The notes: a model not told the origin generated them from the letters alone. 64,000 nt of DNA from an uncultured delta proteobacterium (GCA_963816145.1 CAWFJP010000013.1:96001-160000); one strand, 5' to 3'. Counted from the first letter of the stretch, positions 21,116 to 45,418 are shown. Translations and numbers: made by a program.

Positions 21116-21706
21116 ATGGCCAGGATCAAAGGTGTAACCGAATCTAATGCCAATGATGACGTGCGGCAGATTATCGCCGAGCAGAAGAAACGTCATGGTT
21201 TTGTCTCAAACGCGGCGCAGGTGTCCGCCATAAGGCCGACCATTCAGCAGGGAGTTCAGGCGCTTGCCAAGGGAATTCAGGATTCAGGACTGATCGCGCA
21301 GGAACTGCGCAATTTGGTCTGCGTCAGGACCGCGCATATCAATGGTTGTCCGTATTGAATTGACAGTAATGCATCCGGGGCGATGCAAAACGGCGCAGCC
21401 GCGGAAAAGGTCGAAGCGGCTTTGGGCGATTACAAGAGGAATCCGTTGTTTTCCTTGCGCGAGCGGCTGGCGCTGGAGTTGGCGGAACGGATGACCTACA
21501 CCAGCAAGCGGGTCTCGGATAGGTTCTTCAAGCGGCTCAAAAAACATTTTAGCGACGAGGAGCTGGTCGAATTAGCCGCGGTGATCGCACTGGAGAACTT
21601 TCGCAGCAAGTTCAACCCGGTTTTTGCCATCGAGGCGAATCATTTTTGCTCTTTGCCGGGAATCATAGAAGCTGCTGCCGCCGCCACGCGGCGCTTCCAT
21701 GAGTAA
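21116..21706 (+). CDS. AhpD/carboxymuconolactone decarboxylase-like selenoprotein (CPYU, Sec81)
   Basis: ORFs 20969..21358 and 21383..21706 are in frame across TGA 21356-21358, giving NGCPY-U-IDSN. The C-terminal half has FSLRERLALELAERMT and HFSDEELVEL AhpD motifs. Hairpin follows 11 nt downstream. Confidence 0.85.
21370..21387 (+). promoter_or_regulatory. Candidate bacterial SECIS element
   Basis: UGCAUC-CGGGGC-GAUGCA: 6-bp stem, G at loop position 2, 11 nt after the UGA. Confidence 0.75.
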
Positions 21707-21780
21707 CCCGACGTGCCCGGGCGGTAGGCGGCTGGCCAAGACTGAATGGCCAAGCCGACCTGCCGTCCGCGCCACCTGCG

Positions 21781-22899
21781 TTAGTCCCTCAATAGGAACT
21801 CACCGGAAAATTTCACTTGCTCGTTCTCCGGCAACGGGTGATAGCGTGCCGCCTGAATGTCGCGGAACAGCCGCTCGAGGCCGAAGCTACGATAAAAACC
21901 GGCACCGCCGGCGATTTCCATCGCTTTGGTGACGACAGCGATGGCGGCGTTGGCGACATTGGTTTTCCGGGTCAGAATATCCTGACCGTTTTGATCCACG
22001 GCTTCGAATTCGTAATTCTCCGCGATGCGCAGCATGTCGTTCAACTGAACCTGGGCGGCGACCAAATCGTTGTGCAAAGTGCCGATCAAACCCGCCATTT
22101 GCGGCTTGGCGCTTTTTTGCCGTCGAATATGGCCGATCGCCAATTGCGCCGCTTTCTCGGCAATGCCCACATAGACCGACATGATCAGCGGCATCGCCAC
22201 GGTCAGGACGACATTCCAAACCGGATGATAGGTGCCGCGCGGCCGCTTGAGCGCGATGGCTGCGTCGGGCACGAAGACATTTTCCAGTTTAACGGTATGG
22301 GAGCCCGTGCCTCTCATGCCGAGGGCGCGCCAGTTGTTCAGTACCGTGACACCTTTGGCGTTCATCGGCACCGGGAAATGCAGCACCTCCCAGCCCCGTT
22401 CAGGGTCCATGTATGGCGCGCTGGTGATCAGCATGTCGCCTACCGCGGACTGACTGGCAAAATGTTTCTGCGCGCTGACCAGATAACCGCCGTCGGTTTT
22501 GCTCACCGTGCCGTTGGACTCGAGCCAATCGCCGGCGCCGGTGCTGACCAGCACGAGCTGTTTGTCGGCGACGTTCTTGAGCAGCGGCTCGCCGCCCTGG
22601 CCGCGCCGCCACTTCCAAATTGTCGCGGCGATCAGGTGCTGATGCATCGACAGCGCCAGTGCCGTCGAGCCGCAGTATTGGGCGAGGGTGCGCAGCATGT
22701 CGGCGATCTGGCGATGGGAAGCGCCGCCGCCGCCCAGTTCAGCCGGGATCGCCGCGCCGAACACGCGTGCTGCTTTGAGCGCGCCGTAGTTGTCGCTGAC
22801 AAAGCTGTCGCTCTCATCGCTCAGTTCTGCCCGGCCGGCGAATTCCTTGCCGAGACTATGGGCCACCTCGGTCCATTGAATTGGGTTTAACTGATTCAT
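21781..22899 (-). CDS. Acyl-CoA dehydrogenase-fold protein (flavin-dependent monooxygenase-like subfamily)
   Basis: Start MNQLNP after GAGGAGG; GSTALALSMH, WRALGMRGTGSH, LERLFRDIQAARYHP. Confidence 0.85.
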   Translation of the reverse strand: MNQLNPIQWTEVAHSLGKEFAGRAELSDESDSFVSDNYGALKAARVFGAAIPAELGGGGASHRQIADMLRTLAQYCGSTALALSMHQHLIAATIWKWRRGQGGEPLLKNVADKQLVLVSTGAGDWLESNGTVSKTDGGYLVSAQKHFASQSAVGDMLITSAPYMDPERGWEVLHFPVPMNAKGVTVLNNWRALGMRGTGSHTVKLENVFVPDAAIALKRPRGTYHPVWNVVLTVAMPLIMSVYVGIAEKAAQLAIGHIRRQKSAKPQMAGLIGTLHNDLVAAQVQLNDMLRIAENYEFEAVDQNGQDILTRKTNVANAAIAVVTKAMEIAGGAGFYRSFGLERLFRDIQAARYHPLPENEQVKFSGEFLLRD

Positions 22900-23000
22900 A
22901 ATCGACCTCCTCAAAAATTATTCTGCCGCTGAATATAATCTCCGGCGCCGATCGGTGCTTTGTTGAAAAGGCCGGAAGTTTGACTGAGCGGCTCTTTGAA

Positions 23001-23888
23001 TTATAAAGCGACCCGGCCGGGGCTTTCCTTGCGGTAATGCGCCGGGGGCACGCCGAATTTGTCCTTGAATGCCCGGCTGAAGTGGGAGAGGTCTTCGAAG
23101 CCGCAGTCTAGAGCGACTTGGGACACATTAAGCGCGGGATTTTTCAGCAGCACAGCGGAGTAGTCCAGCCGTTTGTGCAATAGCCACCTGCCGGGCGATT
23201 GCTTGTAGTACTTCTGAAAGTCGCGTTTGAAGGTCGACAGACTGCGATGGGTTAACTTCGCGAAATCTTCGAGACCGAGGTTGTAACAAAAATTTGCCTC
23301 CATGATTTGCGACAGTGGCGGCGCAGCGCTTTTCAGCAGCGATTGAAAATAGGCCGCGAGCTCGGGATTGTTGCGCCCCAGCAATATGCTGACGATCAAT
23401 TCTTTGAGTTTGAGCGTCAGCAAGCTGTCCGCCGGCTTGGCCGTTCCGGTGAAATAGGCCAGCATCGATTGAAAATAAGCGGCCAAGGTCATGTCGCCGT
23501 TGACCAGAATCGCGCCTTGATGGAGCGGGTCGCCGTCGTGCTGGCTGCTCAGCTGGCCGGAAACTTCCTTGACCACTTCGCGGGTAAAATCATCGGAAAC
23601 GAAGAACACCAAAAGACAAAAATCTTCCCTGAAATCCTGGTGCACGATGGCGGCGCCCTTCTTGAAAAATAGCGTCTGGCCTTTTTCCAAGGTCCACGAT
23701 CCTTCGGTCGTGCGCCAGGTTTTTTTGCCGCTGACCACATGAACGAAATAATCGATCGGTGTCCATGCGCCGGCGACATCTTGCTCGATGGGGCATTTGT
23801 ACTCGACGAAAAGCAGCTCCCCAACCGAGAATTTATTGAAATGCAGATTGTCGCGAATGGTCTCGTACATATTCATCATGGGGATCAT
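23001..23888 (-). CDS. AraC family transcriptional regulator
   Basis: C-terminal HTH RSLSTFKRDF ... VSQVALDCGFEDLSHFSRAFK. Confidence 0.92.
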   Translation of the reverse strand: MIPMMNMYETIRDNLHFNKFSVGELLFVEYKCPIEQDVAGAWTPIDYFVHVVSGKKTWRTTEGSWTLEKGQTLFFKKGAAIVHQDFREDFCLLVFFVSDDFTREVVKEVSGQLSSQHDGDPLHQGAILVNGDMTLAAYFQSMLAYFTGTAKPADSLLTLKLKELIVSILLGRNNPELAAYFQSLLKSAAPPLSQIMEANFCYNLGLEDFAKLTHRSLSTFKRDFQKYYKQSPGRWLLHKRLDYSAVLLKNPALNVSQVALDCGFEDLSHFSRAFKDKFGVPPAHYRKESPGRVAL

Positions 23889-24136
23889 CGGCGCTAGCCT
23901 CCTGCGGATATTTACGCGTTACCTGGGAAACTCACCACTCAATTATTTTGCTCTTTTGCCGGGGGCTTTCAAGTATCGGAGATATCGATGAGCGGGCACA
24001 AGCCGATCAGGTTGACAGGATCGCGGGTTAGCGCTTACTGTCGGCAAAAGTGACGACGGTGCGGCGCAGGTTTCGCATTCGACGGTGCGCGCCCGCGCGG
24101 CGCTAAATTCAACTCGACCAAACCGGAGGTATTCCC

Positions 24137-24766
24137 ATGATGACGCTTTTTTTCAGTCCTGGTGCTTGCTCTTTGGCTTCGCATATCGGTCTCGAAGAAA
24201 CCGGCGCGCCCTATGAGCTCAAACCGATCTTGCTGACCAAGGGGCAGCAGCGCACCGCGGATTATCTGAAGATCAACCCGCGCGGTAAAGTGCCGGCGCT
24301 CAGCGTCGACGGCAAGATCCTGGTCGAGAACACCGGCATACTCACATACCTGGCGCGGAGGTTCCCGGACAAAAAGCTGCTGCCGGCCGATCCTGCCGAG
24401 GAAGGGCGCTGTGTCGGTACCATGTGCTGGTTCTCCAGTGTCGTCCATCCGTCGTACCAGCGCTTCCATCGCCCCGAGCGTTTCGCCGACAGCGAAGTGG
24501 CGCACGCCGCGGTCAAGGAAAACGGCAAGAAGTCGTTTTGGGCCAATCTCCAGGAGATCGACTCGATGATCCAGGCGAACGGCTGGGTCATGGGCAAAGA
24601 TTTCACGGTCGTCGACGGCTACGCGCTGGTCTTCTACGGCTGGGCGAGCCGCAGCGGCATGCCGGTGACAGAGCTCAAATCGTACACGGCCTGGCGCGAG
24701 CGCATGATGCAACGACCGACAGTCAAGAAGAGTGTCGAGAGTGAGGAAAGCGTTTCGACGTCATAG
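24137..24766 (+). CDS. Glutathione S-transferase (beta class-like)
   Basis: FSPGACSLASHI, INPRGKVPAL; GGAGG RBS. Confidence 0.92.
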   Translation: MMTLFFSPGACSLASHIGLEETGAPYELKPILLTKGQQRTADYLKINPRGKVPALSVDGKILVENTGILTYLARRFPDKKLLPADPAEEGRCVGTMCWFSSVVHPSYQRFHRPERFADSEVAHAAVKENGKKSFWANLQEIDSMIQANGWVMGKDFTVVDGYALVFYGWASRSGMPVTELKSYTAWRERMMQRPTVKKSVESEESVSTS

Positions 24767-24898
24767 TTGGGTAGCGTTTTCTCCACCTCGACGTCCGTTA
24801 AGAAATTGGCCGGGATTGCCAGATCGTCGAATTGCTTGAGTCTGACGCAGTTTGCCGGCGCAGGTTCGACGGCGATAGGCCCAAACGGAGGAAGCAAA

Positions 24899-25969
24899 AT
24901 GGCTCGGCGCAGCTGGCCGGTTTTATTCGCGGCGGTGATCGCTTCGGGTTTGTTTTTAGCAAGCCGGCCGGTGTTCGCCCAGGAGCCATTTTACAAAGGC
25001 AAGACCGTTCGCTTGCTGGTTAATTATCCTGCCGGAGGAGCCACCGATGTGGTCGCCAGGCTGGTCTCGAGATATTTGGGCAAGCATCTCGCCGGCAATC
25101 CTACGGTCGCGGTTCAGAACATGCCCGGCGGCGGGGGCAATGTCGGCGCCAACTATGTGTACGAGGTCGCCAGTGCCGACGGCTTGACCGTCGGAGTTTT
25201 CTCCGGCGGCTATTTGCCGCAGATCCTCGGCGGCGCCGGCGTGCGCTTTGATCTCAACAAAATGCCGATGATCGCGGGGGTCGGCGAGACCTCGGTGGTG
25301 TACATTCGCGCCGATACCGGGGTCAAAGGCCCCGGTGAAATTCTCAAACCGGCCAAGCCGATCGTCATCGGCGGATTCACCCGCGAGAGCAACAAAGATC
25401 TGGCGTTGCGGATGGCGCTCGATCTTCTCGGCGTGCCTTACCGTTACGTGACCGGCTACGCCGGCGAAGCCGACCTCCGGCTGGCCGTCCAGCGGGGCGA
25501 AATCAATTACACTTCCGAGGGTCTTACCGGCTATACCATGGGCGGCGCCTTGATGGCGCGAGAAGGTGTCGTGGTGCCGATCTATCAAGACGGTTTGACC
25601 GGACCCGATGGAGAGATCGTTCGCGATCTACGCGCCGACCTGCCGACGTTCAAGGAATTCTTTCGAGCGGCGAAGAAAGCCGATTTCTCTGGGCCTTTGG
25701 CCGACGCCTTCAAGATTTCCGGAGCGGTACGTAGTCTCGGCAGGTTTGTCGTCGCGCCACCGAAGACGCCGGCGACGGCAATCGAGACGCTGCATAAAGG
25801 TTTTCGCGAGACCTTTGACGATCCGGAATTCAAGGCGGAGGCGGAACGCGTGTTGCGATTCCAATTGGTGAGTTTTGTCGGCGAGGACGCGGCCAAGGTT
25901 AACACTGCGGTGTTTCGCGCCGCTACCGGACCGGTGCGGGAAGCCCTGCGAAAGATGACTCAGGAGTAA
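24899..25969 (+). CDS. TctC/Bug-like substrate-binding protein
   Basis: Start MARRS after GGAGG; FYKGKTVRLLVNYPAGGATD, GNPTVAVQNMPGGGG. Confidence 0.85.
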   Translation: MARRSWPVLFAAVIASGLFLASRPVFAQEPFYKGKTVRLLVNYPAGGATDVVARLVSRYLGKHLAGNPTVAVQNMPGGGGNVGANYVYEVASADGLTVGVFSGGYLPQILGGAGVRFDLNKMPMIAGVGETSVVYIRADTGVKGPGEILKPAKPIVIGGFTRESNKDLALRMALDLLGVPYRYVTGYAGEADLRLAVQRGEINYTSEGLTGYTMGGALMAREGVVVPIYQDGLTGPDGEIVRDLRADLPTFKEFFRAAKKADFSGPLADAFKISGAVRSLGRFVVAPPKTPATAIETLHKGFRETFDDPEFKAEAERVLRFQLVSFVGEDAAKVNTAVFRAATGPVREALRKMTQE

Positions 25970-26014
25970 GCAGCGCACGAAAGTATCTTATCTCGGAATG
26001 TTGACGCCGGTTGA

Positions 26015-26065
26015 GAGATTGACTCGACGATCCAACGCGCCGGCTGGGTCATGGGTCAAGAGTTC
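26015..26065 (+). pseudogene. Short relic of the upstream GST gene
   Basis: Encodes EIDSTIQRAGWVMGQEF versus GST EIDSMIQANGWVMGKDF (24554-24604); 40 of 51 nt identical by manual count. Confidence 0.6.
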
Positions 26066-26171
26066 AAATTTTGGCTCCATGATCTACCGGGCTCGATTTA
26101 TAGCGGTTCATCGGCAGGATCACGGCAAAAGACTTGCCGCAGGCAGGAAGTCTCATATCTCGGAGGTGCAT

Positions 26172-27272
26172 ATGAAACGCGACAAGCCCAAATGGCGGGT
26201 GTTTCGGCAAATATCTCTTCGCTCCGCATTTGGCGCGCCACTGCTCGGTCTTTGCTTTGATCTCTTCATGGCCGGCATTGCTTTTCCGCAAGCTTCTTTC
26301 TTCCAGGGGAAAACCGTTACCATCCTTGAGAGTAGCGCGCCAGGGGGAGTCGGCAGCATGCGGACCAAAGCCGTTGTGCCTTTTCTCCAGAAGTATATTC
26401 CGGGAAATCCCACCATTGTGATGCAGCACATGGACGGCGGCGGCGGACGCAAGGCGGCCAATCACATTTATCAATCGGTCCGTCCGGACGGCCTGACCAT
26501 TGGCCGTATGTCGACGCCATTCGTGATGCATCCCATTCTCGGAGAGAGTGGAATTCTCTATGACATCGATAAAGTGAGCTATCTGGGCACCAGCTATAGC
26601 GGCGGCTACCATGTTTTTTTCACGCGCCGGGAATCGGGCCTCGACAGTCTAGAGAAGCTTCGCGCGGCTTCAGGTTTGAGAATCGGTTCCCAGTCGGTCG
26701 GGCACCTGATCTACATCTCCGGTCGAATGTTTGCGTATCTGATCGGCCTAAAACAACCGAGATTCGTCACCGGGTACAACTCACCCGAACTCGATGTCGC
26801 CATCGAGCAGGGCGAGATCGACACTAGGTCAACCGTGGCAGACGCACTCCTGCACGAGAAACCTCAATGGGTCGACAAAGCACAGATGGACTTCCACAGT
26901 ATCATCGAGGTTCCGAAAGGGCGGAAACACAGCCACCCGCACTTTGCCAGACTCCCTGACATCGAGAGCTTTGCGAGTTCGGCCATGGACCGGAAACTCA
27001 TCGGGCTGTACCGGGCGTTCATCGGCAGCGGCAACCCGCTAATCCTGCCTCCCGGCACCCCGAAAGACCGAGTCCGCATCCTGCAGGAAGCGATGCGCAA
27101 GACTTATCGAGACCCCGAGTTTGGCAAGGAGTATGCAAAGCTCACCGGCCTAAAGGCTGAACCGCAAATGCCGGAGGAACTGGAGCAAACGATCAGAGAT
27201 ATGCCGCGCGACCGGGAAGCCGTAGAGCTGTTCAAAAAACTCACCGGCCCGGACCCGCTACCGCAGAGGTAA
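26172..27272 (+). CDS. TctC/Bug-like substrate-binding protein
   Basis: Start MKRDKP after GGAGG; FFQGKTVTI, IPGNPTIV, VRPDGLTIG, PPGTPKDRV. Confidence 0.85.
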   Translation: MKRDKPKWRVFRQISLRSAFGAPLLGLCFDLFMAGIAFPQASFFQGKTVTILESSAPGGVGSMRTKAVVPFLQKYIPGNPTIVMQHMDGGGGRKAANHIYQSVRPDGLTIGRMSTPFVMHPILGESGILYDIDKVSYLGTSYSGGYHVFFTRRESGLDSLEKLRAASGLRIGSQSVGHLIYISGRMFAYLIGLKQPRFVTGYNSPELDVAIEQGEIDTRSTVADALLHEKPQWVDKAQMDFHSIIEVPKGRKHSHPHFARLPDIESFASSAMDRKLIGLYRAFIGSGNPLILPPGTPKDRVRILQEAMRKTYRDPEFGKEYAKLTGLKAEPQMPEELEQTIRDMPRDREAVELFKKLTGPDPLPQR

Positions 27273-27385
27273 AGAGCCGATAACTTTCACCCGGTGGTGT
27301 ATTCAGTCATGCGGAAGAAACCCAAAGCGCGCGAAGAAACGATTTGTTTTCTGCGGCCATCAGCGCGCGACGAGGAGGAACAAAT

Positions 27386-27943
27386 ATGACCGCCGAACCC
27401 GAAGGCCCTCGCGTAGGGACCATAGGCCCGGAGTTTCACATCGCCACGGCTGCTGGCTGGCTGCCGCTGCGTCAGTTGGCCGCGCAATATAAGAAACTGG
27501 TTCTCACGACCCAAGATAGTTACCGATATCATCCAAACTGAGCCGCCAGCATGGCTGCTTCGTTGAAGCAGGATTATGCAAAAATTCTCAAGGCGGGAGC
27601 GGACCTCGTCATGATCTCGCCCGATTCTCTTGACGAGCATCGTCAATATGGGCTGACACTCTTCGGCGAGGAACTCCCCTATCTGTTTGTTTCCGACAGC
27701 GACCTCGACATAGCGCGGCGCTACGGCCTGCTCCGTGGCGAAGAGCATCACCACGGCGGTTTTTATTATCGCTCGCTCTGGGTACTGGATCGTGACGCTG
27801 TTATTGCGCACAAGAGCGTTCCCTGGGACGGCAACGCGCAGGTTGAAGAGTACCTGAAATTATTCACACTCATTGGCAGCGAACCGGGAGAATGGCGAGC
27901 CACCTGTGGCTTGAGACAGCCAGGAAATTTGCCTGCGAGTTGA
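27386..27943 (+). CDS. Peroxiredoxin/redoxin (AhpC-TSA-like) selenoprotein (HPNU, Sec52)
   Basis: ATG after GAGGAGG. ORFs 27344..27541 and 27551..27943 are in frame across TGA 27539-27541. VGTIGPEF (Prx N-terminal G..AP.F-like), then ISPDS...H, LPYLFVSD, ARRYGL, RSLWVLD. Hairpin downstream. Confidence 0.8.
27555..27571 (+). promoter_or_regulatory. Candidate bacterial SECIS element
   Basis: CUGCUUC-GUU-GAAGCAG: 7-bp stem, G first in the loop, 13 nt after the UGA. Confidence 0.65.
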
Positions 27944-28008
27944 AATCGAGGGGACAAGGCAATCCCGCCTTACACGTTTGAGGGCGTGTGCGTAGCCGGG
28001 CAAATACC

Positions 28009-28683
28009 ATGTGGACATATATCGGCCAGAAGCGGCCGCCTTTCGCCATAACACCGGGGCTCGGACAGGAGTCGGTGTGGGATTATCCGCGGCCGCCAAA
28101 ACTGATTGCTGAGCAGCGGCGCATTGTCGTTCGGCGCGGCGATCTGCTGATCGCCGACTCGCGTGAAAGTTATCGCATTCTGGAGACCGCGGCGCCGCCG
28201 ACTTTTTACATTCCACCGCGCGATGTCCATGTCGAACTGCTGCAGCCGTTTCCCGGCACGTCGATTTGCGAATGGAAAGGCGCGGCGCAGTACTGGACAT
28301 TGGCAATGGCGACATCGGCGCGGGAAGCGATCGGCTGGAGTTATCCGCAGGCGCAAGCGCCGTACGGCGCGATTGCAGATTTCTTTTCCTTCTATCCCGG
28401 CCGTGTCGAGTGTTTCGTCGACGGCGAGCGCGTGCGCCCGCAGCCGGGTTATTTCTACGGCGGTTGGATAACTGATGAAATTGTCGGGCCTTGGAAGGGG
28501 GAGCCGGGGACGGTTTGGCAAAGAAGTGCCGCATGGCGGGACAACGTCCCGTGGTTACTCGTTGGAGCGGCTGCTTGTTATCTTGTCAGGCTTACTTGCG
28601 GCAATCGCCTTGAGCACCTCTTCGGCCACTACCCGGTGACCCGCTTCGTTGTAATGGCCGAAAACACCAAAAGGAAACAGTGA
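28009..28683 (+). CDS. DUF427 (NTP_transf_9) family protein, copy 1, with aberrant C-terminal extension
   Basis: ESVWDYPRPP, LETAAPPTFYIP, CEWKG.A.YW, WSYP motifs. Diverges from copy 2 after GEPGT (28513) and runs antisense into the next gene. Confidence 0.75.
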   Translation: MWTYIGQKRPPFAITPGLGQESVWDYPRPPKLIAEQRRIVVRRGDLLIADSRESYRILETAAPPTFYIPPRDVHVELLQPFPGTSICEWKGAAQYWTLAMATSAREAIGWSYPQAQAPYGAIADFFSFYPGRVECFVDGERVRPQPGYFYGGWITDEIVGPWKGEPGTVWQRSAAWRDNVPWLLVGAAACYLVRLTCGNRLEHLFGHYPVTRFVVMAENTKRKQ

Positions 28684-30102
28684 CAAAGGGTCTTTCTGAG
28701 CGTAAAAGCCTTGGAGAGTATCCACAATCGAAACATTTGACGCACGCGCCGCTGTATTAATCAGCGCGCGCTCTTGGTCAAGTAGCGGTGATCTCGAACC
28801 AAATCGTTTCCAAGTGGGAAGGTAGACGAGGTGAAGCTTGCCACCCCATTCTCCGACACGTTTGTTCGCCCGGGCTAGAATATCACCGAACAGTCTTATG
28901 TTAGCATTGTCTAAGCCAGACAAGGTCTCGGCTTGCCGTCCGTAAACTAATCCTAATTTACTCCTCACCCTGTTAAACTTTATGGCGTCGACAATCGTTT
29001 TCAACTTATTATCCGGGGGACCCTCCACATGAGCCGCCTTTCCCCGGAACAGTTCCGCTTCCGAGTAGCTGGTGAGAGCTTTGTCGATGTCACTTTGACG
29101 GGATATCAGGCCCTGGTCGAAACCATCTTCCATATAGCGCATCGCTAGCTGGCTCTTGCGTTCATATTGCAAGTATTCGAGATCGATTCCTTCCAAATAA
29201 AACCAAAGAACAATCTCCGGCCTAAGATTAGTCAAGTATTCGTTAATCGCCCCGAGCTGCTTTAGGGGGCCTTCTCCAGAGAAGCCGAGATTGAGCGTGG
29301 CCGGATACTGTTTTCGAACGAGATCAACGAAATTCTTGCCTGCAGGAGCGCAAAAGCCCTGCACAAAGGATTGACCCAATGCCGTGATCTTCACCTGACG
29401 CGAAGACCAGATTCCACGAGGGTTATTAAATCCACGCTCGTCACTTTTGTAACTGGTGAAACTTCCCGTTTGATTACAGGCGATCGTTAGCTTGTCAGAG
29501 ATTCCACCCATAGGAATCAGTTCCGCATGGTTTACCTCAAGCTGCGACCGGATGCTGCCATCAGGCCGTTCTTCCATGAATCTGGTACCCACAAAGGGCG
29601 TAGCGTCGATACCCAGCGTTCGCAAGTCCGTAATTACGGTAGATATATGTCGAGTATCGAAATCAACGCCAGCCTGTCTTGCCATCATGAGGATACGTCG
29701 TTTCTGCTCTGATCCCGGTCCGAATCCCCAGTACGGCAACTCCGTTGCGACGTTTTCCCCGTGAGCCAAAAGCATTTCTCCTACCCACGCCAAAGTCAAA
29801 ACCCCGCCTAAGAAACAAGCGACTGCAAGTTTGTAAGCACGTTTAAGTCGAAGCGACAGAAAGAGCAAAACGCTGATAGAAACTGGAACAAACCGGTAAA
29901 GAAACCCACCGCCAACACCCGTAAACGACCGATTACGAAGCCAGTCATAGTGATAAAAAATATATAGAGCAACAAAAGCCGCGGCCGCGCCGCCCCCGGC
30001 CAAAACGGAATCGACTACTTTTGTCTTATTTGTCGAAACATTTCCTATTACACCATTCAGCATAGTTCGAACGAGTGATTGGGTTTTTGATGGGATATTC
30101 AT
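28555..30102 (-). CDS. Membrane-anchored SGNH-hydrolase-like protein (lower GC)
   Basis: About three N-terminal hydrophobic segments; SDERGFNNP, LGQSFVQG (GDS-like block), NLGFSGEG, GHYNEAGH. Visibly more AT-rich than its neighbours. Confidence 0.7.
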   Translation of the reverse strand: MNIPSKTQSLVRTMLNGVIGNVSTNKTKVVDSVLAGGGAAAAFVALYIFYHYDWLRNRSFTGVGGGFLYRFVPVSISVLLFLSLRLKRAYKLAVACFLGGVLTLAWVGEMLLAHGENVATELPYWGFGPGSEQKRRILMMARQAGVDFDTRHISTVITDLRTLGIDATPFVGTRFMEERPDGSIRSQLEVNHAELIPMGGISDKLTIACNQTGSFTSYKSDERGFNNPRGIWSSRQVKITALGQSFVQGFCAPAGKNFVDLVRKQYPATLNLGFSGEGPLKQLGAINEYLTNLRPEIVLWFYLEGIDLEYLQYERKSQLAMRYMEDGFDQGLISRQSDIDKALTSYSEAELFRGKAAHVEGPPDNKLKTIVDAIKFNRVRSKLGLVYGRQAETLSGLDNANIRLFGDILARANKRVGEWGGKLHLVYLPTWKRFGSRSPLLDQERALINTAARASNVSIVDTLQGFYAQKDPLSLFPFGVFGHYNEAGHRVVAEEVLKAIAASKPDKITSSRSNE

Positions 30103-30971
30103 GAAGTTTAATTTATGTTTGATATTACTGACGTTCTAACCGCCTATGCGAGGGATTACATTCCATTTTGTAAGCGATCGCTTACGGGAAAGATAATGCT
30201 CAATCAAATGCAAACCTGAAACTTTCACACTAATGAAATTGCGGCTCGGCTAAAGAATCTTTTTACGGATCTAATGCGCCTGTGCTTTAACTTCCGCAGC
30301 GTCATCGAAGCGCGATCTCCGAAGCTATCAGAACGGCGATTTAACCTTTTTGGAATTGAGCCGAGCGACTGAACAAAAGCTGACAAAATCACTCCTCATT
30401 CGACGTAGCAGTCAGTTGTATCGTAAGATTCATATCATAAAATACCGTGCTGTTAAAAAGCTATCTGAAAACACAAACTGCTCGATAGTATAAATCGTCA
30501 CGTGAGGATAAATCTGGTCGGTCCGATGAGCGACTTTGTCAAGCAGCCCGCTTTCGGCTTAATGCTGACCAATGACTCCAACGTTGAAAATCTGTCTGTA
30601 TCGGCTGATATTGCAGTGCCGTCCACTTAGACTTCGGAGCTGATGCCACGCTAGTAATTTTCCAGACAGCTCGCGCTACATTTGTTGTAACGGCCTTACC
30701 TGATCTGCATACCGGCATGCTCAGGTCGGACACGAGAAATGACTTCATGATCGAGGGGTCGCGCCTGAGTATCGACTTGAACCGTCCGCCGAATCAGAAA
30801 AGTGTACAAAGAGAACAGAGCGTTTCAGCGTAATCTGAATATCGCAATTTCATGCCGCCGACGGGAGTTTAAAACATTTTGCTTGCATCGTCGTCGCCGA
30901 ATCGCCGAAGCGAAGATGCGTTCGGATTTGGCTTCCGAGGGCGTGTGAGCTAACCGCCCTAGCAATAAAAC

Positions 30972-31487
30972 ATGTGGGTTTATACCGGCCAGAAGCGGCC
31001 GCCTTTCGCCATAACACCGAGGCTCGGACAGGAGTCGGTGTGGGATTATCCGCGGCCGCCAAAACTGATTGCTGAGCAGCGGCGCATTGTCGTTCGGCGC
31101 GGCGATCTGCTGATCGCCGACTCGCGTGAAAGTTATCGCATTCTGGAGACCGCGGCGCCGCCGACTTTTTACATTCCACCGCGCGATGTCCATGTCGAAC
31201 TGCTGCAGCCGTTTCCTGGCACGTCGATTTGCGAATGGAAAGGCGCGGCGAAGTATTGGACATTGGCAATGCCGATATCGGGGCGGCAAGCGATCGGCTG
31301 GAGTTATCCGAAAGCGCGGCCGCCATACGGCGCGATTGCAGATTTCTTTTCCTTCTATCCCGGTCGCGTCGAGTGTTTCGTCGACGGCGAGCGGGTGCGC
31401 CCGCAACCGGGTTATTTCTACGGCGGTTGGATAACTGATGAAATTGTCGGGCCTTGGAAGGGGGAGCCGGGGACGGAAGGGTGGTAG
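30972..31487 (+). CDS. DUF427 family protein, copy 2 (intact)
   Basis: Same motifs as copy 1; ends GPWKGEPGTEGW-stop. Confidence 0.85.
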   Translation: MWVYTGQKRPPFAITPRLGQESVWDYPRPPKLIAEQRRIVVRRGDLLIADSRESYRILETAAPPTFYIPPRDVHVELLQPFPGTSICEWKGAAKYWTLAMPISGRQAIGWSYPKARPPYGAIADFFSFYPGRVECFVDGERVRPQPGYFYGGWITDEIVGPWKGEPGTEGW

Positions 31488-37468: not shown

Positions 37469-37482
37469 TCAAAGAGGATCAC

Positions 37483-38708: not shown

Positions 38709-38743
38709 TACTAAATCCTGACTTTTCAAATTTCGATCAGTGT

Positions 38744-38893: not shown

Positions 38894-38968
38894 GCGATTC
38901 AGTGCGCGGTTCAGGGTTGCGACGTGGATGTGCGTTGTTTGCCGGGGCGTTATTCACGACCTCATAAT

Positions 38969-39973
38969 TCAATGCAGGAGCGCCAAGGCAACTGCCACGA
39001 ACGCTGTGATCAACGCGGTGCCGGCTAGCGCCAGCGCGATGAAAATTGCGCTGCGCCATTGCGGCTCCATCGCGCGCGCACTATCGGCATCGGCTACGTG
39101 AGTCTTGGTGTCGACGAAGAGCGACTGCTGCATGACCGCCTTGGCGGCGAGCACCTCTTCCATAGCGGATTCGAAATCCTGCTGCTTTATGCGCTTAGCC
39201 AAATCCGATCCCGGCTGAGCGGCCGCAAACGCGGCGGCCTTGAGAACCGCATTTTTGATATCGCCGCCGCTCACCGTGTAGCGCTCGGCGAGCTGCTGAA
39301 AATCCACATCCGACGCTAACGGGGTCTTCTTCGGGTGAATTTGCATCTCCCAGATGCGCGCGCGTTCTTTCGGTCCCGGGATCTCGAACAGTACATGGGC
39401 GCGGATGCGGCGCTCGAATGCGGGATCGAAATTCGCTGCCAGATTGGTCGCGAAAATCACGATGCCATTGAACGCCTCCAACTCGCGCAGGAGAACGTTA
39501 ACCGTCAAATTGCTTTCGCGTTCGTGCGGCAGCCCGGCGCCGGAGGAGCGGCGCATGGCGATCGCGTCTGCCTCGTCGAATAATAGGACGGCATTTTGCT
39601 CAGCCGCGGCGCGAAACGTGGCGACGATATTTTTCGGAGTCTCGCCGAACCACATCGACTCGGCCTCGGCATAGTTGACCACAAGAAGCTTCAAGCCGAG
39701 CTCATAGGCAATCGCTTCGGCGCAGATCGTCTTTCCCGTGCCCGGCTGTCCGGCAAAATTAAACGCCAGCCCGCGTCCCGAAGTATGCCGTTCGCCCAGT
39801 CCCCAGCGGTTAAAGATCAAGTGGTGATTGCGCACCTGCGCCAGCGCCTGTTCCAAGGTGCGGTGGGTTTGTGGCGCCAATACGACATCGGCCAACGTGC
39901 GCGCCGGTGTGACGGCTTCGACGACACGGCGCGAACCGAGGCCGGTAAAGAAAGACATCAGCGGACTAGCCAT
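38969..39973 (-). CDS. AAA+ ATPase (classic clade) with C-terminal transmembrane tail
   Basis: Walker A GQPGTGKT, Walker B LLFDEAD, ATN sensor, DPAFERR; hydrophobic C-terminus. Confidence 0.9.
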   Translation of the reverse strand: MASPLMSFFTGLGSRRVVEAVTPARTLADVVLAPQTHRTLEQALAQVRNHHLIFNRWGLGERHTSGRGLAFNFAGQPGTGKTICAEAIAYELGLKLLVVNYAEAESMWFGETPKNIVATFRAAAEQNAVLLFDEADAIAMRRSSGAGLPHERESNLTVNVLLRELEAFNGIVIFATNLAANFDPAFERRIRAHVLFEIPGPKERARIWEMQIHPKKTPLASDVDFQQLAERYTVSGGDIKNAVLKAAAFAAAQPGSDLAKRIKQQDFESAMEEVLAAKAVMQQSLFVDTKTHVADADSARAMEPQWRSAIFIALALAGTALITAFVAVALALLH

Positions 39974-40132
39974 AACTGATTCTGGGCAATTTCATCCTGG
40001 GAATCTAGATCGACAGTGATAAGAATCAAAGCGGTAGACATGCTTACGGCTGCTGGCGGAAATTGATTCGACGATTTTAGACGCCTTGGCGCACAGCGGA
40101 GAGTCCTTCAGTTTTGCTATTTCATCAGCCCG

Positions 40133-40894
40133 CTACGTAACCTTCGTGGGCCGATAAAACTCAATAGCGTTCTTGTAGAAAACATTGGCTGCCTTATCTT
40201 CTCCCAATGTTTCTAAGACCAGCGTGTAGTCGCTATCGAGATAGGGCCTGGGCGCGCGGGTGGATGGCAGGTCGGTGCCGAACATGAGAGCTTTCGGATT
40301 GGCGGCGTAGAGTTCCTTGAGCGCTGAGCCGACGTCGAAGTCGACCCGTCCGAAGCCGGTGGCTTTGACGCGCACGCCCCTCTCCGCGAGTTTGAGCAGC
40401 GTTGGGAACCCGGCTTTGGAAAGACCGATATGGTCGATGCTGACCGCGGGCAGTGAAACGAGGGTGTCGAACAGACCGGCCGCGTCGGTGGAATCGATGT
40501 ATAACTCGGTGTGCCAGCCGACCAGTTTATGAACCCGCCGCGCGAAGCTTTCCAGATGCTTGACGTCTTCGGACCCGCCGCGCTTGACGTTGAATCGGAC
40601 GGCGCGCACGCCGGCGTCGTTGAGTTTCTGCAACTCCCGATCCGATATGGTCTGCGGCACTTGGGTGACGCCGACAAAGGTCGGGCCGAGCACTTTCAAG
40701 GCATGAAACAGATAGGATTGATCCAACTCCTGGAAAGAGCCGGACACCACCGCGCCGCCGCACAGATCGATCGCTTTGACCCGCTCTAGATAATCCTCGC
40801 TGGTAAAGGCGTCGGGCATGAATCCGTGGTTGGGCACCACCGGGAAGTTCTTGTCGATGATATGAAAATGGCAATCGAAATACTTTTGCTTCAA
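40133..40894 (-). CDS. Amidohydrolase_2 family protein (2-pyrone-4,6-dicarboxylate lactonase-like)
   Basis: TTG start after GAGGAG; DCHFH, GVRAVRFN, IDHIG, FGTDLP. Confidence 0.88.
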   Translation of the reverse strand: MKQKYFDCHFHIIDKNFPVVPNHGFMPDAFTSEDYLERVKAIDLCGGAVVSGSFQELDQSYLFHALKVLGPTFVGVTQVPQTISDRELQKLNDAGVRAVRFNVKRGGSEDVKHLESFARRVHKLVGWHTELYIDSTDAAGLFDTLVSLPAVSIDHIGLSKAGFPTLLKLAERGVRVKATGFGRVDFDVGSALKELYAANPKALMFGTDLPSTRAPRPYLDSDYTLVLETLGEDKAANVFYKNAIEFYRPTKVT

Positions 40895-41069
40895 CGAAAT
40901 TCTCCTCTCAAGTGTCTTGAATCGATTATCGCAATCACGCGGGGCGATCAAGTGACGTACGGCCGCAGCCTTGTCGTCCGTCGATCAGGCCCCAGTGAGC
41001 AAATTCTTAATCATCCCGTGCGCAGCTTACGCAGCGTGCTCGAAATTCAGACGCGGCTTGAGCGTTTGG

Positions 41070-41342
41070 CTAAAAGGACTGAAATAGCTCGATCGAATTG
41101 CCGGACGGATCCTCGATGAGGATTTGCTTGCCACCGTTGCCGGTAACGATATTATTGCGAAAGTTCCCTCCTGAATTCTTCAGCTTATTGACCGTCGCTT
41201 CAATATCCTTGACTTCGATCTGGATTCGGTTCCAGCCGCCCGGCGCCGGAGACTGACCGTCGCCCATCGCTTGTCCAGCGCCGCCGGCGCCGGGTCGATT
41301 AAGCAGCAGCTGTAAATCGCCACGCGACAAGTTTTTGGCCAT
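41070..41342 (-). pseudogene. 5'-truncated VOC/glyoxalase family gene
   Basis: LSRGDLQLLL...PGGWNRIQIEV.D...GGKQILIEDPSGN.IELF. The usual N-terminal strand-helix appears missing and abuts a repeat. Confidence 0.65.
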
Positions 41343-41377
41343 GGGTAAAGATTAGAGACCTCGTGAACAATTTCGAA

Positions 41378-41463
41378 TGTTCAAATTGTTCAATCGCTTC
41401 GCTCCGTTCAAGCCGTTTAAGTCCAGCGGTTTCTAATCGTTCATACCATTCAAGTCTTTCAAT
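41378..41463. repeat. GTTCAA-type short tandem intergenic repeat
   Basis: GTTCAA / CGTTCAAGCCGTT units; shares CTTCGCTCCGTTCAAGCCGTTT with 42551-42665. Confidence 0.65.
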
Positions 41464-41593
41464 TCGACCAGCGAAGCGATCCGGCTCTTCGGGTCGGCCC
41501 CAGCTTGGAAAAAGGAAAGGAGCACCTACAATTTATGGTCTTGACCAACACCGACGATAGGGAGCAGTCTAGGTGTAAATAATGGAGGTCGAT

Positions 41594-42538
41594 ATGAAAC
41601 GGATCAGCGTGCATGGAATCTTCGTCCTCGCTTTCTGGTGGATTGGCGTGCAACCCGCGGCGGCTCAGTCCACGACTCTACACGTCGGCTTCAACGGTTT
41701 TTACGGTGCAGCGCCCCTTTACGTCGCTCAAGACGCCGGCATCTTCCGCAAACACGGATTCACGCTCGAAATGGTTTTTATCGCGGGCGGTTCGCTTTCC
41801 ACGCAGGCGTTGATCGGAAAGAGTCTCGATCTCCTCCAGACCGGCGGCCCGCCTTTTCTGAACGCCTACCTAAGGGGGGCACGGCTCAAGATTATCGCGG
41901 GCGTTACCAATATTCTGCCTTATGTCTTGATAACGGGCAGTCGCATTACCAGCCCAGAGCAGTTGCGTGGCAAAAAGATCGGCATCAGCCGCTTCGGCAG
42001 CAACACCGATTTCGTGGTGCGGCTCGCGCTCGGGCAGCTGGGCTTGAATCCTGCGGACGTGACGGTCCTTCAGGTAGGAGGCTCGCAGTCCCGGTTGGTG
42101 GCGCTCAAAGCCGGAACCATCGACGCGACGGTCCTGAGCCCGGAGGAAGCGCTGGCGGCGCAGAAGGTCGGTTTGAACCCGCTCCTTGACTTCGTCGCCA
42201 AGGGCGTCGAATTCCCTCACGTGTGCATCGTGGCCCGTGAAGAATACCTGCAGGCGCAAGCGCCGCTCGTGAAGCGCTTCATGACCGCTTATGTCGAGGG
42301 GATCCGTTTTTTCAAAACGCGCAAGGAGGAATCGGTGCGTAAAATGATGGTGCTGAGCCGATTAAACGACCGGGAGATCGCGGAGAAAGCGTTTGACGTT
42401 TATAGTCGTTCCCTGCCGGACGATGGCCGACCCACGATGAAGGGGCTCGAATCGGTTCTGGCGGACGTTGCCCGAGACGAGCCGAAAGCCAAAGGTTTGA
42501 ACGTCGCACAAATCGTCGACCTCAGCTTCCTTCCATAA
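41594..42538 (+). CDS. NMT1/TauA/SsuA-like ABC substrate-binding protein
   Basis: Signal peptide; YVAQDAGIFRKHG, LRGKKIGISRFGS. Confidence 0.88.
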   Translation: MKRISVHGIFVLAFWWIGVQPAAAQSTTLHVGFNGFYGAAPLYVAQDAGIFRKHGFTLEMVFIAGGSLSTQALIGKSLDLLQTGGPPFLNAYLRGARLKIIAGVTNILPYVLITGSRITSPEQLRGKKIGISRFGSNTDFVVRLALGQLGLNPADVTVLQVGGSQSRLVALKAGTIDATVLSPEEALAAQKVGLNPLLDFVAKGVEFPHVCIVAREEYLQAQAPLVKRFMTAYVEGIRFFKTRKEESVRKMMVLSRLNDREIAEKAFDVYSRSLPDDGRPTMKGLESVLADVARDEPKAKGLNVAQIVDLSFLP

Positions 42539-42550
42539 AATAGCGGCGAA

Positions 42551-42665
42551 TGTTCAAATCGTTTATAGCCTGCCCTGAGTTGATCGAAGGATTCAACCAC
42601 TTCGCTCCGTTCAAGCCGTTTGAGTCCAGTGCGTTCCAATCGTTCAAACAGTTCAAGTCGTTCAA
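42551..42665. repeat. GTTCAA-type short tandem intergenic repeat
   Basis: Multiple GTTCAA units plus an embedded GCCTGCCCTGAG...CGAAGG module. Confidence 0.65.
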
Positions 42666-42684
42666 TGGCTGGCCTCCGATAGGA

Positions 42685-43443
42685 TCACCCCGCGCGCATC
42701 TTGAGCAGTATCGGAATATCTGTGGTCCCCTGATACAGACGGAGTTCTTTTTCTTTGCTCTGCGCGGCGAGCATGGCCATGCGGTCGGCGAGTTCGTTGC
42801 CTTCGGTGCCGACATGGGCGGCGACATGGGTAAGGTTGAGCTGTTTCTTGATGCGTAAAAAGATCGCGTAGCAGTCCTGGATAATTTCCAAATTCTTGAT
42901 CTCGCCGCCGGGTTTCTTCCAGCCTCTTTTTTCCCAACCCGGCGCCCAACTGCGAATGCAGTTGATCGAGTACGCCGAGTCGCTGCAAATCTCGACGCTG
43001 TTGCCGATGTTGATTTCCGCTTCGGCCATGCGCAAGGCGTGGTAGAGCGCGTTCAGCTCGGCGGTGTTGTTGGTGCCCATCGGGTGGTATAGGCCAAACC
43101 ACAATTGCGCGAGCTTGCCGGCGCGATAGACGACGATGCCGGAACCGGCATTACCCGGGTTGGGTTCGCAGGCACCGTCGCAATAAATGCTAATGTCGAA
43201 CTGGTGCGCGGTATGCGCGGCCCGATGAGTGCTGTTCCGCGTGCCGGCTTTGGTAACGCCTGCGGTTTTCGACGGATTCGTTGCGCTGGCGCCGCAACCG
43301 AAGGCCTGCTCGGCTTCCGCCCGGGTCGCGAAGGACTTGAAGCGTGCCCCGGCAAACTTGTCGACCGCCCGCTGAGCGGTTGGCCAATCGGTGAAAACAC
43401 CGGTCTGCCGTCCTGACCATACCACGTAGAATTTTTGCGCCAT
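42685..43443 (-). CDS. rnhA: Ribonuclease HI with N-terminal hybrid-binding (viroplasmin) domain
   Basis: FYVVWSGRQTGVFTDW domain; DGAC.PNPG, TNNTAEL, DS.Y, GNELAD catalytic motifs. Confidence 0.92.
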   Translation of the reverse strand: MAQKFYVVWSGRQTGVFTDWPTAQRAVDKFAGARFKSFATRAEAEQAFGCGASATNPSKTAGVTKAGTRNSTHRAAHTAHQFDISIYCDGACEPNPGNAGSGIVVYRAGKLAQLWFGLYHPMGTNNTAELNALYHALRMAEAEINIGNSVEICSDSAYSINCIRSWAPGWEKRGWKKPGGEIKNLEIIQDCYAIFLRIKKQLNLTHVAAHVGTEGNELADRMAMLAAQSKEKELRLYQGTTDIPILLKMRAG

Positions 43444-43652
43444 GCTGCGTCGATCCGTTTATCTTAGAAATGAGTTCTTCAGGCTTTGGTTTGAATGGTC
43501 TAGCACAGTCGGTTTGATTTTTTCACCACGAAGCACCCAACACGGCAGAGCCGCAACAGATTTAGCAAGAAAATGTCCACCACGAAGTGTCCGTGAGCTT
43601 ACGCCCGTCTACAGAGTATGAAATTCCAGCCCCCCCTGCACGCCCGCCGAGT

Positions 43653-43722
43653 CGTCATCCCGGCGAAGGCCGGCATCCTGGCGACAGAGGGGGGATGGAT
43701 ACCGGCTTTCGCCGGTATGACG
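43653..43722. repeat. REP-like doublet palindrome
   Basis: CGTCATCCCGGCGAAGGCCGGCATCC ... GGATACCGGCTTTCGCCGGTATGACG. Confidence 0.75.
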
Positions 43723-43901
43723 GAAGTCCCATGCCAATTCGTCGCCCAGATCGTGCTTGGCATGTACATTCTAAGAAGGACACGAAGAGCACGAAGTTCG
43801 GAGTCTAGATTATTCGAACCCTTCGTTTCCAACGTGGAGAGAACACCTTCAAAGTAAACCCGCAAGCATCTAATAGCGTCAGATTTTGGTTCTAGCAATT
43901 C

Positions 43902-43918
43902 CGCGTCGCCCGGACGCG
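43902..43918 (-). promoter_or_regulatory. Candidate SECIS element in the selO 3' UTR
   Basis: mRNA CGCGUC-CGGGC-GACGCG, 12 nt after the first UGA and 3 nt after the second UGA; no U-tract. Confidence 0.75.
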
Positions 43919-43921
43919 TGA

Positions 43922-45418
43922 TCAGGTGCCTCAAAAAGTTTGGTAGCGCGCTCCTCCTTCGGTCGCTGGTTCGGCAAAGGCGGCAAACTCTGGCTGATCG
44001 TCGAAAGGATGCTCCAGGATATGCAGCAGTGTTTCGAAAGGCGCGTAATCGCCGCGTTCGACGGCGGCGCTCAAGGCTTCCTCGACGCGCTGATTGCGCG
44101 GAATAAACGCGGGATTAACCCGGCGCATCGCCTGCGCCCGCGCCATGGGGTCCGCCGCCTCGCGCGCCAGGCGCGCCCGCCAGCGGCTGCGCCAGAGATC
44201 ATACGCCGACGGATCGGCAAACAGGGCGCGAATCAATTCGTCGTTGCCTAATGCTGCATCGGCGAGGTAACGGAACGCCAACGTGTAGTCGACGTGCCTG
44301 CCTTCCATGGCGCTGAGAAAGCCGGTGGCGAGGTTGATATCGGCCTCATCCGCGCCGGTCAGTCCCAGCTTGGCGCGCATGCCGGTCAGCCAGTGGCGCT
44401 GGTATTGGTCCGGAAAGGCATGAATCACATCGGTGGCGCGGGCGATGGCACGATTATTATCCTCATCGATCAGCGGTAGCAGCGTCTCGGCGAGCCGCGC
44501 CAGGTTCCACTGCGCGATGCTGGGCTGATTGGCGTAGGCGTAGCGGCCTCGCGTGTCGATGGAGCTGAAGACCGTTGCCGGATCGTAATGATCCATGAAG
44601 GCGCATGGGCCGTAGTCGATGGTCTCGCCTGAGATCGCCATATTGTCGGTGTTCATCACGCCATGGATGAAGCCGACATGCATCCAGCTGGCGACGAGAG
44701 CCGCTTGGCGGTCGCACACGCGCTCAAGCAATTCCAAGTAGGGGGCCGTGCGGCGTTTCAATTCCGGGTAGTGGCGCTCGATCACGTAATCGGCCAAACG
44801 GCGCACCTTGTCTTGTTCGCCGCGGGCGGCGAATAGTTGAAATGTGCCGACACGGATGTGGCTCGCGGCGATGCGCGTCAAAACCGCGCCCGGTAGCGCG
44901 GTCTCTCGATAGACCGGCTCGCCGGTGACTACTGCAGCGAGCGCCCGAGTCGTCGGGATACCCAGCGCGTGCATCGCTTCACCGATCAAATATTCCCGCA
45001 ATACCGGCCCGAGCGCCGCCCGACCGTCGCCCCTGCGCGAAAAAGGCGTGGGCCCTGAACCTTTGAGCTGAATGTCGCGACGCCGTCCGTTGCGGTCGAT
45101 TACCTCCCCCAGGAGCAGCGCGCGGCCGTCGCCCAGTTGCGGCGAGAAGCCGCCGAACTGATGGCCGGCGTAGGCTTGCGCTAGCGGCAGCGCTCCTCCG
45201 GGCGTCTCGTTGCCGGCAAAAATCCTGGCGCCTTCATCGGAATCGAGGGCCGCGGCGTCGAGCCCCAATTCATCGGCCAACTGAGGGTTGAATTTGACCA
45301 TCCTCGGCTGCGCCACTTGCGCTGCCTTCCACGGCACGTAGAGACCCTCGAGTGCGCGCGCGTAGGTGTTGTCGAAGACAAAGCGTGCGGCGCTGGTTTG
45401 GTTAGGGACTTGCGTCAT
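43922..45418 (-). CDS. selO: Protein adenylyltransferase SelO/YdiU with probable Sec496 (YQTF-U-GT-stop)
   Basis: YAGHQFG, LGDGRA, QLKGSG.TPFSR.GDGRA, GFIHGVMNTDN, IDYGP motifs. The 3' end reads TAC CAA ACT TTT TGA GGC ACC TGA, matching the family tail YxTFCGT. Confidence 0.9.

Follow-up and report, generated by a model that had tools for sequence, protein, structure and literature searches.

Three in-frame UGA codons as probable selenocysteine codons in a Candidatus Binatia-type soil bacterium, including a SelO gene with a putative SECIS hairpin behind its stop codon

The stretch of DNA analysed here (the window) comprises 64,000 nucleotides (nt), positions 96001-160000 of contig CAWFJP010000013.1 (C13) of assembly GCA_963816145.1, a genome of 7.82 Mb in 31 contigs with 56% G+C. 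The genome belongs to a soil bacterium of the Candidatus Binatia type. Three genes of the window contain an in-frame UGA codon that is followed at short distance by a small hairpin, namely a gene for an AhpD-like, YciW-related protein of the CMD family, a gene for a peroxiredoxin-like (Prx-like) protein with an AhpC/TSA fold, and a gene for SelO, the protein adenylyltransferase of the YdiU family (Table 1). These codons and hairpins had been picked out by a first-pass annotation, and reading of the sequence confirmed all of them, together with the closure of all three stems by 5'-UC/GA-3'. As judged from the sequence comparisons described below, the three UGAs are very probably selenocysteine (Sec, U) codons, recoded in the canonical bacterial way by SelB and a selenocysteine insertion sequence (SECIS).

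Table 1. Positions of the three genes, their in-frame UGA codons and the associated hairpins in the window.
Feature	Position	Strand	Description
AhpD-like / YciW-related (CMD family) gene, predicted selenoprotein	21116..21706	+	196 codons; motif C-P-Y-U
Predicted Sec codon (UGA), AhpD-like gene	21356..21358	+	context ...INGCPY-U-IDSNASGAMQ
Putative SECIS hairpin, AhpD-like gene	21370..21387	+	UGCAUC-CGGGGC-GAUGCA; starts 11 nt after UGA, loop from +17
Prx-like (AhpC/TSA fold) gene, predicted selenoprotein	27386..27943	+	185 codons; motif H-P-N-U
Predicted Sec codon (UGA), Prx-like gene	27539..27541	+	context ...YRYHPN-U-AASMAASL
Putative SECIS hairpin, Prx-like gene	27555..27571	+	CUGCUUC-GUU-GAAGCAG; starts 13 nt after UGA, loop from +20
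SelO (protein adenylyltransferase, YdiU family) gene, predicted selenoprotein	43922..45418	-	ends ...T-F-U-G-T-stop
Predicted Sec codon (UGA), SelO gene	43931..43933	-	third codon ahead of true stop TGA 43924-43922; context ...RYQTF-U-G-T
Putative SECIS hairpin, SelO gene	43902..43918	-	CGCGUC-CGGGC-GACGCG; 3' untranslated region (UTR); 12 nt after UGA, 3 nt after true stop, loop from +18

The read-through product of the AhpD-like gene matched Pfam CMD with 41 bits (cut-off 23) and TIGR00778 with 33 bits (cut-off 27.8), and the domain spans the UGA. The segment INGCPYU could be aligned to INGCAYC of PA0269 (2o4d/2ijc), by which the predicted Sec occupies the place of the second Cys of CxxC. 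With the AhpD-like CxxU selenoproteins and the NCBIfam model NF053654, 'YciW-related (seleno)protein', the protein shares the CMD/AhpD fold, the Sec at the second position of CxxC and a match to 173 of 179 model positions (1-173). Its score of 156.5 bits against this model is under the equivalog cut-off of 310, however, and it is therefore a member of a related subfamily and not of that equivalog. For the Prx-like gene, the read-through product gave 39.2 bits with Pfam AhpC-TSA (PF00578; cut-off 26), again with the domain across the UGA, and its U was aligned to the peroxidatic Cys of solved archaeal and bacterial peroxiredoxins, e.g. 5xbs ('ftpvC') and 5ovq. Fold and site of the U are those of the Prx-like thiol:disulfide oxidoreductase selenoproteins (PF00578), while the H-P-N-U motif, in place of the usual T/S-x-x-C(U), and the distribution, which among the 60 relatives searched is limited to the same genus, set the protein apart from them. 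The SelO frame runs for 495 codons to a first TGA, continues with GGC ACC and ends at a second TGA. Its product scored 398.5 bits with Pfam SelO (PF02696) and 584.6 bits with NCBIfam NF000658 (cut-off 431), and U496 was aligned to the antepenultimate Cys of solved bacterial SelO structures (C486 of 488 in 6eac; Pseudomonas syringae SelO and others). In each of the three products the Pfam domain crosses the UGA or extends up to it. Since the U is aligned with Cys in all three proteins, each UGA is situated at a functional-Cys site of the homologues.

The conservation of the three codons was followed in the 60 nearest genomes (same genus, family and order), which together with this one make a set of 61. 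The AhpD-like gene was present in 30 of these genomes, G005 and G035 counted in; its loci were read from all carriers except these two, and TGA was retained in 28 of the 28 loci read. They fall into two orthologue groups, that of the window gene with 11 sequences and a paralogue group with 17. In the window group, codons 5-9 after the UGA (GCA TCC GGG GCG ATG), which form the hairpin, are invariant in 11 of 11 sequences, while codons 1-4 and 11-16 are variable, with synonymous changes at 1-4, 11-13 and 16. The paralogue group carries a hairpin GC[A/G]UCC-AGUG-GGAUGC at the matching place, in which the A/G alternation exchanges an A-U pair for G-U. The Prx-like gene was found in 10 of the 61 genomes, all of the same genus, with TGA in all ten distinct loci. 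Codons 5-10, where its hairpin lies, are near-invariant across the ten orthologues, and a single K-to-R change makes a U-A pair U-G. Thus synonymous sites are frozen in the hairpins of both genes and variable outside them. The hairpin string of the Prx-like gene occurs once in the window, with zero occurrences expected.

The strongest new evidence comes from SelO, which exists in two forms within the comparison set. The gene was identified in 25 of the 61 genomes, this one included, with TGA at the U site in 15 and TGC in 10, and all 25 orthologues end in [U/C]-G-T-stop. In all 15 TGA-type genes the two codons behind the UGA remain Gly-Thr through synonymous changes (GGC/GGT/GGG and ACC/ACT/ACA), which indicates that the codons after the UGA are translated. 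The hairpin GCGTC-C(N3-5)-GACGC follows the true stop in 15 of 15 TGA-type orthologues and in none of the 10 TGC-type ones. In the former its stem arms are 100% identical, compared to 35% identity in the following 20 nt of the UTR. Because this hairpin is non-coding, its conservation is not a side effect of protein constraint, and its strict association with TGA argues that it is selected only as long as the codon is UGA. Three of the ten TGC-type genes show recognisable, decayed hairpin remnants, and the remainder have unrelated sequence at this place. Such mutated remnants, with for example two to three stem substitutions, were seen in the 3' UTRs of Cys-type SelO at loci L066, L067 and L070, and also at L136, L139, L140 and L150. 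This pattern suggests that the replacement of Sec by Cys in SelO is recent in the genus and may have happened more than once.

A similar division was found among named public genomes, for which the best 80 SelO loci were compared. The relatives at 77-85% identity are Candidatus Binatia or 'delta proteobacterium' metagenome-assembled genomes (MAGs). Of these 80 loci, 77 had a readable C-terminus; ten carry TGA, 66 TGC and one TGT, and 77 of 77 end in TF[C/U]GT-stop. All ten TGA-type loci are of Binatia type with the hairpin present, while the TGC/TGT type includes Bradyrhizobium, Rhizobium and Vibrio among others. With the predicted Sec codon only three codons before the stop, the SECIS comes to lie in the 3' UTR. 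In eukaryotic SELENOO, the Sec is likewise third from the C-terminus and the SECIS is located in the 3' UTR. The eukaryotic element, however, is a kink-turn structure far downstream which is read by SBP2/eEFSec, whereas the SelO hairpin described here is a small element of the SelB type with a fixed spacing of 12 nt to the UGA. In engineered E. coli expressing mammalian thioredoxin reductase, a bacterial SECIS placed after the stop works untranslated when the Sec is near the C-terminus; in comparison, the SelO arrangement is natural and not engineered.

Of the selABCD machinery to which the first-pass annotation had referred, selA, selB and selD (616.5, 417.4 and 380.1 bits, respectively) were found by profile search in adjacent positions on contig C30, and selD itself contains one in-frame TGA. 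The SelA protein matched PF03841 with 533.7 bits, and SelB carries the winged-helix domains SelB-wing_2 and SelB-wing_3. Among the 49 tRNA genes predicted by ARAGORN there is one tRNA-SeC(tca) of 95 nt. Its acceptor stem has 8 bp and its T stem 5 bp, the extra arm is long, and the gene is situated approximately 10 kb from selD. In the proposed mechanism, for which E. coli fdhF is the prototype, SelD would provide selenophosphate and SelA would convert Ser-tRNA-Sec(UCA) to Sec-tRNA-Sec. The C-terminal winged-helix domain of SelB would then bind the small hairpin, whose apical loop begins 17-20 nt past the UGA, and Sec-tRNA-Sec would be delivered to the ribosome. Sec would thereby replace a redox-active or conserved Cys in the AhpD-like/YciW-related protein (C-x-x-U), the Prx-like protein (peroxidatic U) and the AMPylating SelO (C-terminal U-G-T). 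It is from gene structure, machinery, homology and conservation taken together that we infer Sec insertion and SelB binding.

The first-pass annotation had also proposed a large selenoproteome, and this expectation was borne out, with 36 verified genes of known selenoprotein families in the genome. The census started from TGA codons with coding-looking sequence in the same frame on both sides, which gave 312 candidates; the coding-potential thresholds had been lowered, as the initial settings lost two of the three window genes. Of these candidates, 64 were picked through alignment to a U/C or U/U paralogue in the same genome or through a hairpin, and 58 of them were subjected to a Pfam scan, the excluded ones being two window genes and four copies of repeated elements. 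In 28 of the 58, a domain of a known selenoprotein family spans the U or, for GrdB, stops just before it (the NCBIfam GrdB models cross the U). These are GrdB (six genes), UGSC (three), AhpC/TSA (eight), CMD (four), PrdB-like (two), rhodanese (three), OsmC (one) and a type III sulfide:quinone reductase (SQR; one). Together with the three window genes and selD they make 32. A second pass accepted three of 19 further candidates (two GSTs and a fourth UGSC protein) and rejected 16. GrdA, which has one TGA, came from a family search and brought the total to 36. For the AhpD-like, Prx-like, UGSC, GST, rhodanese, OsmC, GrdA/B and SQR selenoproteins, curated models exist in every case. According to the available text of PMC13188914, the largest bacterial selenoproteomes cited comprise 57 and 63 genes; that of the present genome is large and no record.

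The other 30 of the 58 read-through open reading frames (ORFs) were dropped as adjacent genes in one frame, as a repeated intergenic element or for lack of a family. The repeated element was seen at loci L032, L047 and L051, 3' of several unrelated genes after a TGA, with the translation ...CMTLGSK.RGSEFVD.KSTLPFVIPAQAGIQ..., and is probably an intergenic repeat which is not coding. A hairpin-first scan without coding filter (51,911 TGAs, 3,902 hairpins and 379 apparent U/C pairs) was likewise dropped, being swamped by out-of-frame matches between paralogues and repeats. The family search of the genome did not find Rdx/SelW (PF10262), and the thioredoxin (PF00085) matches in the genome were without in-frame stop. 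A DUF411/CopG-like gene at C3:293474-293611 (minus strand) has an in-frame TGA 24 nt upstream, in the context KTPT-U-DCCDGW (U-x-C-C), and is a probable further selenoprotein candidate outside the 36.

Like the three genes of the window, selenoprotein genes elsewhere in the genome occur paired or clustered within a few kb to 20 kb, with sites at C14:204655/205462, C3:89966/94063, C31:513353/516670, C2:332165/341896, C29:122697/132747, C4:431399/439032 and C5:337280/356146. For 36 such genes spread over 7.8 Mb, the expectation in 23 kb is about 0.1.

The hairpins were compared with the published model of the bacterial SECIS (bSECIS), which in the available text of PMC13188914 has an apical loop of 3-9 nt with a G at its first or second position, a stem of 4-16 bp, 16-37 nt from UGA to loop and a minimum free energy (MFE) of -7.5 kcal/mol or lower. 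The AhpD-like, Prx-like and SelO hairpins have loops of 6, 3 and 5 nt (CGGGGC, GUU and CGGGC) on stems of 6, 7 and 6 bp, and their loops begin 17, 20 and 18 nt from the UGA. In loop, stem and spacing they agree with the model as given there, and they differ from it in nothing of kind, the departures being the position of the SelO element past the stop codon and a weak AhpD-like core. Energies of -7.6 kcal/mol for the Prx-like hairpin and -9.6 kcal/mol for that of SelO, with its extension, are within the threshold. Of the 35 tabulated Sec sites of the genome, 34 carry a hairpin whose loop begins 16-23 nt past the UGA, in 24 of them at 17-19 nt, and has a G among its first two nucleotides. Triloops account for 21 of the 34; 26 loops begin with G, and eight have a G at the second position but not at the first. 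A descriptor of this kind with TAA and TAG controls was used rather than a covariance model, since the 35 hairpins are non-homologous, short and variably spaced.

In the controls, a bSECIS-type hairpin followed 50 of 457 TGA codons with coding-looking sequence on both sides (10.9%), compared to 23 of 419 TAA (5.5%) and 23 of 371 TAG (6.2%). At ORF ends, stricter motifs gave an approximately two-fold excess for TGA with a peak at loop start +18. A 7-bp stem with a G-first triloop at 16-21 nt was counted 17 times after TGA and seven times each after TAA and TAG, while at 22-51 nt the three stops were alike (31, 32 and 36, respectively).

From the likeness of the window hairpins, the first-pass annotation had derived a lineage-specific SECIS consensus. 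On this view the SelB of the lineage would favour hairpins that have a U-C/G-A closure and the core RUC-CGGG(G)C-GAY, and the motif could serve to find the selenoproteome. UC/GA does close all three window hairpins, two of them have UC-CGGG..C-GA in common, and a third case exists in the selD of this genome (GGUC-CGGGU-GACC). The motif was formulated as a stop, N10-14, a stem of at least 5 bp closed by TC...GA and a loop of 3-6 nt with G at position 1-2. Genome-wide, it was found after 828 of 235,533 TGA, 362 of 109,375 TAA and 310 of 93,136 TAG (35.2, 33.1 and 33.3 per 10^4, respectively), that is, as often after TAA and TAG as after TGA, which is the outcome that the first-pass annotation had itself named as refuting the consensus, and it fits only four of the 35 verified Sec sites. 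The closing dinucleotides of the 34 hairpins are GC/GC in 11, TC/GA in five and GA/TC, CC/GG and CA/TG in four each; their loops include GGC eight times, GUG four times, GUU three times and the CGGG type only four times. In the paralogue group close to the AhpD-like gene, moreover, C-G closes the AGUG loop. Among the relatives' selD genes (28 loci read), seven have a CGGG loop and 21 have UCGGC-CCN-GCCGA. A lineage-specific consensus is therefore very unlikely.

The selD loci L239-L263, which mostly carry UCGGC-CCN-GCCGA without a G in the first two loop positions, fall outside the published bSECIS rule. With CGGG kept by selD in only seven of 28 relatives, the CGGG loop also lost its support as a conserved special class. 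This count and the failure of the motif test indicate that the UC-CGGG-GA core is a recurring variant and not a rule; the likeness of the two hairpin cores (UC-CGGG..-GA) is a variant inside the general bacterial SECIS consensus. For eukaryotic SECIS elements, a hierarchy of Sec insertion is known. That the UC-CGGG(N)-GA penta- or hexaloops of selD, SelO and the YciW-like gene might form a separate class of SelB affinity, by which mRNAs would be ranked for Sec insertion under selenium scarcity, is unlikely.

Another alternative put forward in the first-pass annotation was that cysteine is inserted at the UGAs, through a SelB-like factor and a tRNA-Cys(UCA). Cys-inserting SelB-like systems have been described in other bacteria, and the homologues of the three proteins do carry Cys at the aligned position. 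In this genome, however, SelA and SelD are encoded next to SelB, the only SelB above the family cut-off is the one described (the runner-up, at 188 bits, matches in the GTPase part only), and the sole tRNA with a UCA anticodon has the 8/5 shape of tRNA-Sec. That there is only one SelB and one tRNA(UCA) argues against a parallel Cys-inserting system, and this alternative is highly improbable.

Read as true stops, the UGAs would leave split or truncated genes (pseudogenes or genes in two pieces), with the hairpins as chance structures or terminators. The existing annotations side with this view. Gene callers agree on it, and public collections (NCBI, ENA and JGI sources) hold the exact truncated products. 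The AhpD-like gene is represented there by pieces of 80 and 107 aa, the Prx-like gene by pieces of 51 and 130 aa and SelO by one of 495 aa, and their clusters have 125, 15, 4, 8 and 13 members, respectively, mostly of equal lengths. SelO would also lose only three residues in this way, and the folding z-scores of the hairpins are unremarkable. Against it stand a single protein domain across each UGA and the retention of TGA and of the downstream frame across genus, family and order. The synonymous changes by which SelO keeps its Gly-Thr, a UTR hairpin that is present only with TGA, and the lack of a U-run behind this hairpin speak against it as well. True stops are thus extremely unlikely. As the public calls cut all three genes at the UGA, the first-pass annotation was right in describing these genes as mis-annotated.

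Several observations nevertheless weigh against Sec recoding and have to be set beside the evidence in its favour. The AhpD-like core hairpin, at -6.3 kcal/mol, is weaker than the published threshold of -7.5, and the MFE of its 49-nt segment (-16.8) belongs to a competing fold and not to the core hairpin. In 65-nt folds, the z-scores of the three window hairpins were -0.79, -1.10 and 0.00, a folding energy indistinguishable from chance. Rfam gave no family at the gathering threshold in the whole window, and none up to an E-value of 10 at the three sites (20000-46000). The TGA-specific hairpin excess was not seen in the classes with short downstream or upstream frames (C- and N-terminal stops), and a loose motif (6 bp, loop 3-6) gave no TGA-specific signal at ORF ends. 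In none of the three window hairpins was a fully compensatory change of a base pair observed. The pair changes that do occur lead from A-U to G-U and from U-A to U-G, and a few orthologues lose closing or outer pairs, with a 5-bp core left; the hairpin evidence is thus one of conservation and wobble-compatible change, not of covariation. Finally, the estimated contamination of the assembly is 6.72%, so material of a second strain could figure in the selenoprotein gene count. In favour of Sec recoding remain the domains across the UGAs, the Cys alignments, the kept TGA codons and the conservation of the hairpins, all read from genome data, and with these the proposal of the first-pass annotation that bacterial SECIS hairpins allow the three UGAs to be read as Sec is well supported.

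That UGA is generally sense in this organism, through a changed genetic code, has practically no probability. Several frames are open on TGA read-through, but TGA is the most frequent of the ordinary stops (of 6668 coding-looking ORFs, 2432 end in it, against 2219 in TAA and 2017 in TAG), from which it follows that the code is not reassigned. Of the 77 read-through ORFs (58 + 19, Pfam), 46 are adjacent genes or noise and not single proteins, and where UGAs were accepted, the aligned residue is Cys, at catalytic sites only.

Some further features of the window and the assembly were observed. Upstream of the Prx-like gene (neighbourhood 24137-27943) there are a GST gene and ORFs of 400 and 424 codons with no Pfam match, as well as an AraC-type regulator, and a DUF427 gene comes next. 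At 28008-28307 and 30971-31270, a direct repeat with 97% identity over 300 nt or more copies the start of this DUF427 gene (27988-28680 and 30972-31484). Between the copies lies a 515-codon ORF (28555-30102, minus strand) without Pfam match, in a stretch with a lower G+C content of 52%, and the region looks like an insertion or a local duplication. At the level of the assembly, near-identical long segments are shared across contigs (C19, C20 and C30:429-452 kb; C6, C7 and C14; C22 and C14:513-522 kb), which showed up as identical out-of-frame matches in the hairpin-first scan. They represent either a strain mixture or large repeats, in agreement with the contamination estimate.

Neither the mechanism nor the protein families are new, and Candidatus Binatia is a new lineage for Sec-containing SelO and not a new kind, because Sec-containing bacterial SelO was reported in 2025. 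That first report, as far as the accessible text of PMC12013277 goes, concerned Desulfosediminicola ganghwensis and was made with deep-Sep; the accessible text of the 2026 review PMC13188914 also includes such a SelO. The SelO-like protein of Desulfosediminicola ganghwensis, as it appears in that part of PMC12013277, resembles the present one in belonging to PF02696, in having Sec where other bacteria have Cys and in a bacterial-type SECIS after the UGA, whereas the Candidatus Binatia-type MAGs belong to another phylum-level lineage. Beyond that case, the present data document a Sec/Cys polymorphism within one genus, together with the decay that the 3' UTR SECIS has undergone in forms with Cys. 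In the literature library that was searched, no paper pairs Binatia with selenoc... or Binatota with selenop..., and the 2026 bacterial selenoprotein database BSepDB, to judge from the available text of PMC13326102, may already include these genes.

Because gene callers cut at UGA, the redox proteome of the Binatia, a widespread uncultured soil lineage, is systematically mis-described, and in this genome alone at least 36 genes need Sec-aware annotation. Within one genus, SelO constitutes a clean natural experiment, with 15 predicted Sec forms with an intact 3' UTR SECIS set against 10 Cys forms in which the SECIS is decayed or lost. These matched Sec/Cys pairs, with their stepwise decay of the UTR hairpin, offer a natural series for the role of selenium at the C-terminus of this AMPylase, and this series is the one result of some wider use.

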